This document shows, piece by piece, positions 553 to 56,603 of a stretch of DNA of 64,000 nt (its first letter is position 1; each line of letters opens with the position of its first letter). A program made the position numbers and the translations under genes. The notes under the pieces were generated by a model, which worked only from the letters and a program-made list of their open reading frames with translations, was not told the DNA's origin and did not search any database. Source of the stretch: Leucoraja ocellata (lineage: Eukaryota); assembly GCA_036785375.1 (NCBI GenBank), contig JAWMAR010000070.1, forward strand, positions 7,192,001 through 7,256,000, in the 5' to 3' direction.

Positions 553-1092
553 ATGGGACTGCAGAGATGGATAGGATTCATGGTCCTTGTGGAGATGGTG
601 TGGCAAGTCTCCGCAACTGGAACAGGTCCGATCTCCAGAGAATGGGGAGAGGAAGCAAACTTGGCCGGGCGGAACACACGGGCGTATTTCAAAGTCACCA
701 ATGAACCGCTTCCAAGATGCACGAACGAGTCAGATTCTGATGCCATCAGTCATCACCCATCACCGATTAACAAGAAGGTGCTCGTTGCATCTCTGGGTGG
801 TTCTGTTACGTTGCCATGTAATATATCCATCCTTAAAAATCATTACAGGGTTGTTCAATGGAAAAAAGATGGTGTTCAAATTGCCAGTTTCCATGAGAGA
901 GCGTATGCGCGTTATACGGGGTCTGATGTTCACTGGAAGTTCGTTGATCACGACGTCTATATGGCTCAGGACGCCACGTTGCTCCTGACAGGTGTAAAAG
1001 AGGAAGATACAGGGACGTATTCCTGTGTTTGGTTCCATTATAGAGATAGACCGTTTTGTGAATTATTGATGCAGCTGATGATCTCTCACTGA
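553..1092 (+). CDS. Secreted single V-set Ig-domain protein, subfamily A copy 1 (A1), 179 aa
   Basis: ATG 553 in strong Kozak context (GGAACATGG) just after a splice acceptor (TTGTTTCACCCACAG, AG at 547-548); the ORF-track GTG start at 526 lies in the intron. Hydrophobic leader MGLQRWIGFMVLVEMVWQVSA. V-set hallmarks: GGSVTLPC, VQW, DATLLL, EDTGTYSC, about 68 aa between the canonical Cys. Stop right after the G strand, no TM segment. Confidence 0.88.
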   Translation: MGLQRWIGFMVLVEMVWQVSATGTGPISREWGEEANLAGRNTRAYFKVTNEPLPRCTNESDSDAISHHPSPINKKVLVASLGGSVTLPCNISILKNHYRVVQWKKDGVQIASFHERAYARYTGSDVHWKFVDHDVYMAQDATLLLTGVKEEDTGTYSCVWFHYRDRPFCELLMQLMISH

Positions 1093-1964
1093 TTCAGCAG
1101 GGCCAGTCCCAGGGTCAGTAACAAAGTCTAGTCTAGTTTAGTTTCGTTCAGAGGTACAACAGGGAAACAAGCCCTTCGGCCACAGAGTCAATGGGGACCA
1201 GTGATCACCCCATATACTAGTTCTATCCCACACACTAGATACAATTTACACTGACCAATTAACCTACAAACCTGCACGTCTCTGGGGTGTGGGACGAAAC
1301 CGGAGCTCCCGGATTCCAAAGAGGAAGGAAGATTCCAAGGGGAGTTAGGGGCGACCGTGGCTGACAAGGGAAGTCAGGGACACTATCACAAATGCATTTC
1401 GTTGTCTCTGTTCTGTACACTGACAATGACAATTAAATTGAATCTGAATCTGATAAAAGTGAACAGGTATAACGTTGCAAAGATGAGCGGAAAGCCAGGG
1501 GATTAGGTAACTCTTTTAAAGAGCAACAGAAGATAACTAAAAAAGCAATACGGGGAGAAAAGATGAGGTATGAAGGTAAGATAGCCAAGAATAGAAAGGA
1601 GGATCGTAAAAGCTTCTTTAGATATGTGAAAAAAATTAGTTCAGACTAAAATTGGTCCTTTATAGACTAAAAACTTTGGATCCGTCTTCACTAAGGAGAA
1701 CACAAACAATCTCCCTGATGTACTAGTGGCCAGAGGATCTGGGGACAACGGAGAGCCAGTGGATGTAGTGTACCTGGACTTGCAGGAAGTATTTGATAAG
1801 GTCCCACATAGGAGATTAGTGGGCAAAATTAGAGCACATGGTATTGGGGGAAGGGCCTGTTTCCATATTGTTTGACTCTGACACTAAGTAGGGAATAGTA
1901 AAGGTATAAAGATGAGCAGCGTGGAAGGTGTGAGCGTGGATCGCCTGCAGTGAGGAGAACTGAC

Positions 1965-2115
1965 CTTGCTTGCACCGGTAAATGTACGTTTAATTTAAAT
2001 AAACTTTCCTCTGCCTGCCCTGAAGACAGCCGGTGTGAGTGATTCTTTGTACGCCAGCATTGAGTTGGGTGTGAACTTTGTGCAACTTTTGCTCACTACG
2101 GGCAACATCGCCGGA
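1965..2115 (+). terminator. Conserved polyadenylation module of A1 (A2 AATAAA 8585-8590; A4 43436-43441)
   Basis: AATAAA 1998-2003 followed by GT-rich GTGTGAGTGATTCTTTGT; the same block lies downstream of every intact A and B gene in gene orientation. Confidence 0.6.
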
Positions 2116-2118
2116 TTA

Positions 2119-52998: not shown

Positions 52999-55900
52999 AC
53001 AGCCCTTGGCACCTGCGCTGGTTCCACAGTTTATACTCAATCTGAGCCGGCAGCTGGGATGGCGTTGGATCAATTCTTCCTTCCCAACAACCATCAGGCT
53101 GTTGAACACGACACGACACTGAGGTCAACGATGAACGTCTATGGAATGTCCAAGGTTGCACTAATGCCCCTGTCCCACTTGGGAAACGTGAACGGAAATC
53201 TCTGGAGACTTTGCGCCCCACCCAAGGTTTCCGTGCGGTTCCCGGAGGTTTTTGCCTGTCTCCCTACCTGCTTCCACTACCTGCAACCTCCGGCAACCAC
53301 CTGCAACCTCCAGGAACCTTCGGGACGAAACGTTGCCTATTTCCTTCGCTCCATAGATGCTGCTGCACCCGCTGAGTTTCTCCAGCATTTTTGTGTACCT
53401 TTGATTTTCCAGTATCTGCAGTTTCTACTTAAACATCAAATAGAACAAGTTGTCCTACAACTTTAGGCTGTGCACGCCACACGAAAGAAGAAGTTGACAT
53501 GTCAGTCCCGCCATCCCGAGTATTAACCTGGTGAACCTACGTTGCACTCCCTCAATAGCAAGTTATATGGACAGGTTGGATAATCTTGGATTGGTTTCTC
53601 TAGGACTTCAGATGTTGAGCGGAGAGCTGACAGAAGGTAATAAAATTCTTAAGGGGTTGGACTGGCTAGATGCAGGAAGATTGTTCCCGATGTTGGGGAA
53701 GTCCAGGACAAGGGGTCACAGTTTAAGGATAAGGGGGAAATCTTTTAGGACTGAGATGAGAAAAACAATTTTCACACAGAGAGTGGTGAATCTGTGGAAT
53801 TCTCTGCCACAGAAGATATTTGAGGCCAGTTCATTGGCTTTATTTTATGAGGGAGTTAGATGTGGCCCTTGTGGCTAAAGGGATCAGGGGGTATGGAGAG
53901 AAGGCAGGTGCAGGATACTGAGTTGGATGATCAGCCATGATCATATTGAATGGCGGTGCAGGCTCGAAAGGCCGAATGGCCTACTCCTGCACCTAATTTC
54001 TATGTTTCTATGTTTCAATGAGAGCCAGATAGGTTAGACAGTCAGAACCAATTTGCGCAGAGTGGAAATGCCAAAGACTAGAGGGCATCGCTTTAGGGTA
54101 GGAGGCTTTCAAGAGAGAGTTAGATAGAGCTCTTAAATATAGCGGAGTCAAGGGATATGGGGAGAAGGCAAGAATGGGGTACTGATTGTGGATGGCGGTG
54201 ATCACAGTGAATGGCGGTGCTGGCTCGAAGGGCCGAATGGCCAACTCCTGCACCTATTGTCTATTGTCTATTGAGATAGGAAAATTTTAAAGATGTGCGG
54301 GACACAGAGGGTGGTGGGTGCCTGGAACACGATGCTGTGGGTGGTGGAGGCAGATACAATAGTTCAGAGTCTTTATCTAAAAAGTCTCATGGATATGCAG
54401 GGAATTGAGATTATGGATCAGGTGCAGGCAGAGGAGATTAGCTGAACTTGGCATCATGTTCAGCATGGACCTTGTGGGCCGAAGGGCCTGTTCCTGTGCT
54501 GTTCCATGTTCTATGTTACATCATCTTCTCAATCACATCTTGAGAAGAACATTTTCCAGAGGTGCCCAGGTACCACCAGTGTGACATTCATTGTATCTGC
54601 TGCAGTCAACGAGTGTGTTGTGTAGACAGCCAGAGGAGAAGATGGGATTTATGTGCAGTTTCATTTTGTAATCATTATTTATTTAATGTCATAGTGTAAT
54701 AGAGTCATAGAGTGATACAGTGTGGAAACAGGCCCTTCGGCCCAACTTGCCCACACTGGCCAACATGTCCCAGCTACACTAGTCTCACCTGCCTGTGTTT
54801 GGTTCATATCCCTCCAAACCTGGCCTCTCCATGTACCTGACTCACTGTTCTTTAAACATTGGGATCTAAATGTTGCCTCACCAACGCAAGATGACCTCCC
54901 AACCTCTATACTCCATACTGTGACTGATGAAGGCCAAAGTACCAAAAGTTTTTTTAACCACCGTATCTACCTGCAACTGCATCTTCAAGGAACCATGTAC
55001 CTTCACTCATAGATCCCTCTGCTATACAACATTCCTCAGAGCTGGACTATTCACTGTGTAGGTCCTGCACATGTTAGACTCCCCAAAACACAACACCTCA
55101 CATTACTCTGTATTAAATTCCATCAACCGTTCCTCAGCCCAACTGACCAATATTTCAGGATCCTGCTGCAATTTTTCACAACCATCTCCACTATCTGCAA
55201 AACCGCCTACTTTTGTGTCATAGAAACATAGAAAATAGGTGCAGGAGTAGAGGCCATTCGGCCCTTCGAGCCAGCACCGCCATTCAATATGATCATGGAT
55301 GATCATCCAACTCAGTATCCTGTACCTGCCTTCTCTCCATACCCCCTAATCCCTTTAGCCACAAGGGCCACATCTAACTCCCTCTTAAATATAGTCATCT
55401 GCCTTTACTTTTGCCCCTGTTTTGTTCCTGACAACATTCCCCGTTATTTTTGTTCCTGTTCTCAACACCTGTGGACTCCATGATTTTCCACATGTTGTTC
55501 CGTCCCCGTGTGGTCATGGACAATGTTGGACACAGCTCATAGAAGCCGACGATGTTGCCCGTAGTGAGCAAGAGTTGCACAAAGTTCACACCCAACTCAA
55601 TGCTGGCGTACAAAGAATCACTCACACCGGCTGTCTTCAAGAGAGTTTATTTCCATTAATGATACATTTACCAATGCAAGCACGATCTGTCCCATTGCAC
55701 TACATTTGCCCCATATCCCCCTAAACCTTTCCCTGTCCCAAGTGTGTATTAAATATTGTTACAATTCCCACCCCACCAGACAGTTCTATAAACCCACCGC
55801 CCCCTGAGTGAAAATGTTGCCCCTCAGGTTCCTATTAAATCTTGCCCCTCTAACCTTAAACTTATGTCCCTCTGGTTCTTGATTCCCGTACCCCAGGTAA

Positions 55901-56087
55901 AATATGTTTTGTGTTCACCCCTCTATTCCCCTCATGATCAATTAAGTGACTACAATATAGAATGCTGTTGTTGGCCTAAGTGTGTGAAGTTTATAATGAT
56001 GGATGTTATTGTGTGTTTGTGCTGTCCTGCCACTGCCTGTTGCTTCTGTCACATGGGGGGGGGCCTGTGCTGGGTCAGTGTGAGGTT

Positions 56088-56603
56088 TCACTTCACTGTC
56101 AGCTTGATATTTTGTCTACATTCCCCTTGGCCAGTGATCCAAGTGCAGGAATACATCCCAATATCAGCCTCTTGTAAACCCGTGATGACCAACGTGGCAT
56201 CCCGTTTCACATCCACTTTTGTTTCCTTGAACGTCCAGCGGCCGGGAGCCCCTGGATAGGTCGCACCTTTCCCTTTAGTAAACACGGCCAATGTCCTCTT
56301 CCCTTTACTCCAGGTGACCTCAAAACTCTTGGGTCCACCCTTCCCTGTGGGTACTTTACAGGGCAGCGTAGCAGAACCACCCTTGCTTGCCGTCACATCC
56401 GTGAATTTCATCTTGGTCGCAGCTGGCCTAACACCGCATTCTGGAGAACTTTGTTTGTTGACTTGTCGAGGCTCCCGTGCGTTCCACCCGGGCAAGTTTG
56501 CTTCCTCTCCCCATTCTCTGGAGATCGGACCTGTTCCAGTTGCGGAGACTTGCCACACCATCTCCACAAGGACCATGAATCCTATCCATCTCTGCAGTCC
56601 CAT
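56088..56603 (-). CDS. Secreted single V-set Ig-domain protein B4, 171 aa
   Basis: Intact paralog of B1 (GGSATLPC...VTW...DATLVI...DIGMYSC...KLTVK). Confidence 0.88.
   Translation of the reverse strand: MGLQRWIGFMVLVEMVWQVSATGTGPISREWGEEANLPGWNAREPRQVNKQSSPECGVRPAATKMKFTDVTASKGGSATLPCKVPTGKGGPKSFEVTWSKGKRTLAVFTKGKGATYPGAPGRWTFKETKVDVKRDATLVITGLQEADIGMYSCTWITGQGECRQNIKLTVK

Follow-up and report, generated by a model that had tools for sequence, protein, structure and literature searches.

Nectin/PVR/CTX-type variable (V) domains of the immunoglobulin superfamily (IgSF) are often proposed as the stock of antigen receptors. The window analysed here, a stretch of 64,000 nucleotides from the skate Leucoraja ocellata (positions 7192001-7256000 of contig JAWMAR010000070.1, here C70), contains eight paralogous genes that each encode one V-set domain of nectin/PVR-like type. 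The family is larger than first noted, as these eight belong to a set of 59 assembled copies, and its most striking features are a constant 5' cassette, a signal of selection in the domain behind it and a probable nectin ancestry.

By analogy, the family would function most like the VCBPs and SITR, which are soluble germline V-type binders, while being a member of neither. The VCBPs of protochordates (amphioxus, Ciona) are, according to PMC4757023, germline-encoded V-domain proteins that are secreted and serve innate immunity in the gut. Germline V genes are common to both systems, and the skate ones lie among chitinase genes with CBM14 exons, but in VCBPs the V domains are fused to a chitin-binding domain, whereas the skate proteins have one V domain; no chitin-binding domain was found in the six window proteins scanned, whose open reading frames (ORFs) end after the V domain, and the parallel is drawn as an analogy. 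Teleost SITR is genome-encoded and soluble (PMC3031540). SITR and the skate MDIRs resemble the skate family as non-rearranging IgSF multigene families but are CD300/TREM/pIgR-like, SITR with two Ig domains and the MDIRs as activating or inhibitory receptors, in place of one nectin-like V domain. The extra C-C' cysteine pair, with its disulfide, that is a trait of CD300 is not present in the skate family.

Shark VNAR and camelid VHH share with the skate proteins a single V domain and an extra disulfide (predicted here), and clade A of the skate family varies at loops equivalent to complementarity-determining regions (CDR) 1, 2 and 3 and hypervariable loop 4 (HV4). They differ in that the skate family has no recombination signal sequence (RSS), J motif, constant domain or rearrangement, carries its diversity in the germline and belongs to another V lineage. 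RSS-like sites were absent near the 3' end of all 59 genes, as judged by consensus motifs, and no FGxG or WGxG J motif occurs in the 37 distinct proteins; leader and V domain share one exon, unlike the split leader of rearranging V segments. The distinction from rearranging Ig, IgNAR and TCR V genes drawn in the first-pass annotation is borne out by these features, while its term 'nanobody-like' suits the loop-focused variation of clade A, does not suit clade B, and is an analogy rather than a statement of homology. The skate family lies outside Ig/TCR, B7/butyrophilin (BTN), CD300/MDIR and the nectins proper.

A genome search gave 61 matches that resolve into 59 genes, 57 of them at C70:6.993-7.518 Mb and two on a second contig, C16. 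These are almost certainly real genes; 52 of the 59 copies are intact and encode 37 distinct proteins in seven clades (at 60% identity). Every copy has a TATAAAA box, CCAAT-like boxes, a first exon, a GT-AG intron (541-587 nt in 58 of 59) and a single coding exon that begins 4 nt upstream of a strong-context ATG. The individual promoter proposed earlier for each window gene is thereby found throughout the family, whereas the polyadenylation sites proposed with it are hexamer matches alone, with neither control nor read support. The earlier division into two subfamilies on opposite strands does not extend to the whole family, since there are seven clades, beyond the window strand does not follow clade, and one window gene (at 15103) belongs to a further lineage.

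Two other architectures were considered and rejected: shared-exon splicing as in the protocadherins, since no gene lacks a promoter and exon 1 of its own, and a promoter borrowed from a chitinase gene, since outside the family genes the TATA-to-donor part is confined to two orphan modules. These promoter and exon 1 modules, at C70:7260715-7261067 and 7512132-7512484, have an intron broken by retroelement-like sequence and no coding exon near either.

The encoded proteins comprise, in order, a leader of ~22 aa, a pro-segment, an RxxR site (at residues 36-46), Cys56, the V domain and a fourth cysteine in strand G, with RxxR and four cysteines present in 37/37. The V domain shows the IgSF V-set hallmarks (B-F cysteines, C-strand tryptophan and D-x-G/A-x-Y-x-C), and the extra cysteine pair, one before strand A' and one in strand G, presumably forms a disulfide. 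The V-set assignment of the window genes held up, all six intact window proteins scanned (the gene at 42052 lay outside the scan) scoring above the Pfam cut-off. In AlphaFold models a member of either main clade adopts a V fold, with a predicted local distance difference test score (pLDDT) of ~77-92 over residues 61-171 in the clade B member and a weaker clade A model, in which Cys56 is the only residue among 1-73 with pLDDT of at least 50; a complex prediction for an A-B heterodimer, made without alignments, was uninformative (score 0.00).

The reading frames terminate at or just past the G strand, and no consensus splice donor was found near the stop in 12 of the 13 genes checked, including 7/7 intact window genes. 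A 202-aa protein found only in Logan is encoded on a 900-nt contig in which exon 1 runs directly into exon 2 across the predicted junction, and the protein terminates at the stop position of its paralogs; this contig is too short to contain the intron, and so represents a spliced transcript. The earlier description of stand-alone V domains, without transmembrane (TM), constant or cytoplasmic parts, agrees with all three observations. To judge from these sequence features, the mature product is very probably a soluble V domain.

Close homologs are unnamed gene models in L. erinacea (LOC129708937-42, -45 and -46) and Rhinoraja longicauda (LOC144605155). Among 1.84 billion proteins, a profile search yielded one further full-length homolog, Narcine bancroftii XP_069798310.1 ('nectin-1-like'), with leader, RxxR and four cysteines laid out as in the skate proteins, and an alignment search recovered only batoid family proteins (8 of 2633 candidates). 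No shark or stingray member was seen among 55 plus 2633 candidates or the best 150 of 2849 profile matches, which were mostly multi-Ig proteins, with shark genomes outside the search; a search for fused or longer forms gave one generic sea-urchin match among 7999 scored, which counts only weakly. No description of the family was found in literature coverage that mostly leaves out subscription journals and supplements, and the six LOC identifiers searched appear in no paper. As far as searched, the family is undescribed, its database presence being automatic gene models from two skates and one electric ray. The earlier statements that it corresponds to no named gene, and that it is lineage-specific and rapidly diversifying, are both upheld, the former by these unnamed or automatically named models and the latter by the batoid-only homologs and by the substitution rates given below.

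The V domain is very probably derived from a nectin/PVR-type domain, as suggested by profile, tree and modelled fold. All 14 PDB matches of the Narcine homolog are PVR, nectin-2 or nectin-1, and its only non-family matches in the L. ocellata genome are two nectin-type V exons, one of them confirmed as nectin-1. It retains both the AX6G lock and the T(F/Y)P key, motifs that define PVR-family pairing according to PMC10486284. In the skate proteins AX6G is found in 14/37 (all of clade B and one other), T(F/Y)P in 0/37 and (V/I)(S/T)Q in 0/37. The family profile ranks PVR first, then light chain, JAML, CD226, B7-H3 and nectin-2, so that B7-H3 is a mid-rank match. The family and the nectins form a clade with support of 100/99 in a tree of 37 rows, and this clade was recovered with 25 rows, after removal of six long and six near-duplicate rows. 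Forcing the family together with BTN/B7-like rows was rejected (approximately unbiased test, p-AU 0.036) in a small sample of five such rows, two named as such and three assigned by likeness, while family monophyly was not rejected (p-AU 0.137). The B7/butyrophilin affinity suggested in the first-pass annotation is thus replaced by a nectin/PVR/CAR-type one in sequence, tree and fold. First domains (D1) of the nectin/PVR group (CD155, nectin-1/2/3, TIGIT, CD226) align with fold Z-scores of 13-14.6, with nectin-1 (Z 14.6) and CAR (Z 14.4) tied at the top in VIA-align, and ESM Atlas matches are generic V-set clusters (CD200R-like, nectin-2, TIGIT).

Against this likeness, the skate family lacks the C2 domains, TM segment and tail of nectins, encodes leader and V domain in one exon, has a pro-segment, RxxR and two extra cysteines, has lost the key motif in skates, and is multi-copy and positively selected. 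A nectin-type gene on contig C1288 has a separate leader exon and a splice donor after the V exon. Since the skate frames stop after the G strand without TM or further Ig domains, the family would be nectin-derived rather than a nectin, and retroposition of a truncated nectin-type message may have been its origin. Local duplication from a nectin was rejected, as none of 18 nectin-1 exon matches in the genome lies on C70 or C16. Viral origin was likewise rejected, fold matches in a viral library being generic (11-28% identity among the 50 matches listed) and the introns being of host type.

The cassette extends over ~1,045 nt, from the promoter to near the RxxR site. Across 42 inter-clade pairs drawn from 11 genes (three genes with different introns excluded), DNA identity is 94-100% at positions -700 to +109, 84% at +110 to +139 and 40-71% at +140 to +499. 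At the protein level the median identity is 95% over residues 1-40 versus 36% from Cys56 on (666 pairs), with 26-36% between clades. At synonymous sites, clades A and B are separated by a distance of 0.009 in codons 1-40, compared with 0.78 in the mature part, a pattern indicative of gene conversion or repeated crossover at the 5' end. In the mature part, pairwise dN/dS within clades is 2.5 for A (16 sequences) and 1.85 for B (13 sequences), with bootstrap intervals above 1, and maximum-likelihood estimates of the same ratio (omega) are ~3.4 and ~1.8, with twice the log-likelihood difference from omega = 1 at 17.2 and 7.6 respectively. Variation in clade A is 0.38 in the BC, C'C'', DE and FG loops versus 0.08 elsewhere, a contrast reached in 0/10,000 permutations and 0/102 shifts; its C strand is variable as well. 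With its sharp border between constant cassette and variable domain, the gene clearly exemplifies concerted evolution and diversifying evolution side by side in one exon.

The V genes are interleaved with a cluster of GH18 chitinase genes, 57 of the 61 GH18 matches lying at C70:6.94-7.96 Mb and several of them between V genes; the cluster includes CBM14 exons, and its best PDB match is AMCase. As assembled, it amounts to ~17 AMCase-like genes, some with several CBM14 repeats. This interleaving suggests shared expression in gut or leukocytes, and one study, cited in PMC6795676, reportedly concerns chitinase in fish lymphomyeloid tissue.

The favoured explanation for tandem two-exon genes with a single fast-evolving nectin/PVR-like V domain and no anchor, to which we would give an even chance, is that they form an inherited, non-rearranging and secreted defence set. 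A nectin-type gene of a batoid ancestor would have given rise to a truncated copy without introns, perhaps via retroposition, and the product of that copy would be exported by the N-terminal leader, trimmed at RxxR to a domain of ~125-135 aa and braced by a second disulfide linking Cys56 with the cysteine of strand G. Unequal crossover and gene conversion would keep promoter and leader uniform, giving every copy the same expression and export, and the V loops would be diversified by selection. The targets may be variable non-self surfaces (microbes, parasites, viruses) in a chitinase-expressing tissue, for example gut mucosa or granulocytes. A bolder and more tentative version, which we regard as possible but doubtful, is that rays possess a second, non-rearranging antibody-like system, in which a membrane-freed nectin V domain behind a constant cassette supplies a polymorphic, haplotype-variable repertoire, with diversifying selection acting on its CDR-equivalent loops, that is co-secreted with the neighbouring chitinases against microbes and parasites. 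If true, this would be an independently derived vertebrate counterpart of the VCBPs and a natural four-cysteine scaffold for single-domain binders; a jawed vertebrate would have turned a nectin-type V domain into a soluble germline repertoire, making that step, taken independently, testable, and the small single-domain proteins would be easily expressed for ligand screens.

Several observations weigh against a secreted defence set. Clade B has no loop bias (0.26 versus 0.22, p 0.23), the loop set was chosen after the table of variation per segment had been seen, and loops are more variable than strands in most proteins generally; gene conversion and mixed alleles can also inflate omega. Only two nectins are represented in the tree, beside 8-14 other V domains, and Foldseek places CAR D1 above the nectins. 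The signal peptide is assigned by pattern and hydropathy only, the leader being weakly hydrophobic (19-residue Kyte-Doolittle maximum 1.0-1.3) and some windows within the V domain more so (up to 1.7), and an upstream in-frame ATG with good context could alter leader behaviour. Linkage to chitinases is no demonstration of co-expression, and the two copies on C16 have no GH18 match nearby. Read mapping covered four of 24 listed runs; in the three RNA runs among them, of each of which 5-25% was read, exon 2 depth was zero in two and ~2-3 reads in the third.

No splice junction was listed in the same portions of those runs, and a run search listed no RNA run with a match; the contigs designated X4 span promoter and intron and are DNA-like in appearance. 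Two-exon transcripts, as expected earlier, are represented by the spliced, stop-terminated Logan contig and hardly at all by reads. This near-absence of RNA, together with a common strong TATA/CCAAT-like promoter, would fit narrow expression, as in reproductive or other glands (seminal fluid, clasper or shell gland, skin, electrosensory jelly) under sexual or species-recognition selection. A conserved prepro part with a fast-evolving mature part is typical of gland products, and nectins act in sperm-Sertoli adhesion. The persistence of seven old clades, several of which pair closely with L. erinacea genes, is nevertheless more in keeping with a maintained repertoire than with rapid turnover, and we consider a gland function unlikely.

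The nectin/PVR/CAR-like fold, the AX6G lock in clade B and both motifs in Narcine would also be expected of soluble proteins that act on the nectin axis as decoys or competitors, binding viral attachment proteins or skate TIGIT/CD96/CD226-like receptors through the nectin-type face, and the arms race that this implies would yield omega above 1. Nectins are receptors both for viral gD and for natural killer (NK) cell receptors (PMC6373967). Set against the decoy function are the absence of T(F/Y)P and (V/I)(S/T)Q from every skate protein and an inter-clade identity far from what mimicry of one host receptor would give, and it too seems rather unlikely.

The choice of start codon bears on whether the V domain is secreted at all. 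In 55 of the 59 genes exon 1 contains an in-frame upstream ATG in good Kozak context, 17 nt past the TATA box, that would add 31 residues and is used by all eight L. erinacea RefSeq models and by the Logan-only protein. Translation from it might produce a type II membrane anchor, with the V domain exposed at the cell surface or released by cleavage at RxxR. This ATG, however, probably precedes the main transcription start site, and in two intact genes (g02 and g38) it is not in the reading frame, which makes the second ATG the more probable start; the Rhinoraja model begins at the second ATG, the N-terminal extension of the Narcine homolog is unrelated, and the hydrophobic stretch is short and contains Glu and Gln. 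A type II anchor is accordingly improbable. As for the signal peptide and pro-segment annotated earlier, the layout with its RxxR stands throughout, whereas the leader is less secure on account of its modest hydropathy and of the exon 1 ATG.

The size of the V-domain family depends on how the assembly is read. A block at C70:6,985,005-7,312,929 (328 kb), which contains the window and is bounded by two 200-N gaps, is collinear with 7,313,130-7,565,801; each follows a 200-N gap and opens with the same chitinase exon, and they hold 32 genes (28 intact) versus 25 (23 intact), with eight identical proteins in common. One block is reasonably likely to be a retained second haplotype, true tandem duplication being the less likely alternative; the flanks are only 95-97% identical. 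The count is then more likely ~25-32 copies per haplotype than 59, and family copy number would vary within one animal. Elsewhere in the genome, near-identical copies of nectin-like exons are found on two different contigs or duplicated on a single one (C92/C1570, C85/C535, C89), which suggests that the assembly often retains both haplotypes. A mostly neutral, repeat-driven expansion, inflated by the assembly of both haplotypes, would draw on these collinear blocks, on duplications of 10-46 kb at 97-99.7% identity and on the near-zero RNA signal. It is very improbable in view of the many intact frames, omega above 1, the framework and cysteines kept across clades and in Narcine, and the spliced transcript; a dual-haplotype assembly would lower the count and leave the family real. 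A toxin-like or deterrent secretion, suggested by the strongly basic charge of clade B proteins (net +7 to +13) and by the constant leader and variable disulfide-rich mature part of toxin superfamilies, is extremely improbable, no toxin being among the Pfam or PDB matches of the family and neither skates nor electric rays being known as venomous.

All eight paralogs reported in the window were located, with coding starts at 553, 7138, 15103 and 42052 on the forward strand and 21628, 38438, 52031 and 56603 on the reverse strand; as reported, seven are intact (170-179 aa). Gene 1 (forward strand) has its GT-AG intron at 4..548, the TATA box and most of exon 1 lying just upstream of the window, and its clade A coding exon at 553..1092 (179 aa: leader, pro-segment, RxxR and four-cysteine V domain). 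Gene 2 (forward strand) carries its homogenised 5' cassette at 6242..7286, comprising CCAAT-like boxes, TATA at 6481, the upstream ATG at 6498, exon 1 to 6586, the intron and the first ~49 codons, and this matches 57497-56455 of a clade B gene at 98.6% identity; its own coding exon, at 7138..7674, is of clade A (178 aa). Gene 3 (14450..15652, forward strand) retains TATA, exon 1 and intron ahead of a coding exon (ATG 15103) frameshifted near codon 144, with an early stop at 15552; it represents the separate further lineage, which is broken in 5/5 copies.

Genes 4, 5, 7 and 8 belong to clade B and lie on the reverse strand. Their coding exons are at 21113..21628 (171 aa, basic, isoelectric point ~10; TATA 22324, exon 1 end 22219), 37926..38438 (170 aa; TATA 39094), 51516..52031 (171 aa; TATA 52727, exon 1 end 52622) and 56088..56603 (171 aa; TATA 57258, exon 1 end 57153, exon 2 start 56607), the last being near-identical to L. 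erinacea LOC129708941. Gene 6 (42052..42591, forward strand, clade A, 179 aa; TATA 41397, exon 1 end 41502) is head-to-head with gene 5 and 98% identical to gene 1. Six such clade A/B head-to-head pairs share one common spacing and are copies of one unit. The divergent pair on C16 lies at 1774984 and 1786230, one copy being broken, and ~40 kb away is a single-exon PH-domain gene that we take to be PHLDA-like.

The spacers separating the V genes consist of retroelement and short interspersed element (SINE)-like sequence. A DIRS-like tyrosine-recombinase retroelement at 58469-62641 has four long overlapping ORFs (gag-like, reverse transcriptase, a third ORF and an integrase-family recombinase), and the second block holds a 99.5% copy of it. 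A CR1/L2-type long interspersed element (LINE) reverse-transcriptase ORF of 694 aa occupies 29180-31261, and two broken long terminal repeat (LTR) retrotransposon gag/pol remnants, at 19394-20507 and 49091-50941, lie within a duplicated 5.3-kb unit. An ORF of 164 aa, at 16957-17448 and 46827-47186, has no Pfam match and is present four or five times across the cluster; a common repeat makes up its 3' part. A 31-nt minisatellite of 10.8 copies is located at 9530-9865.

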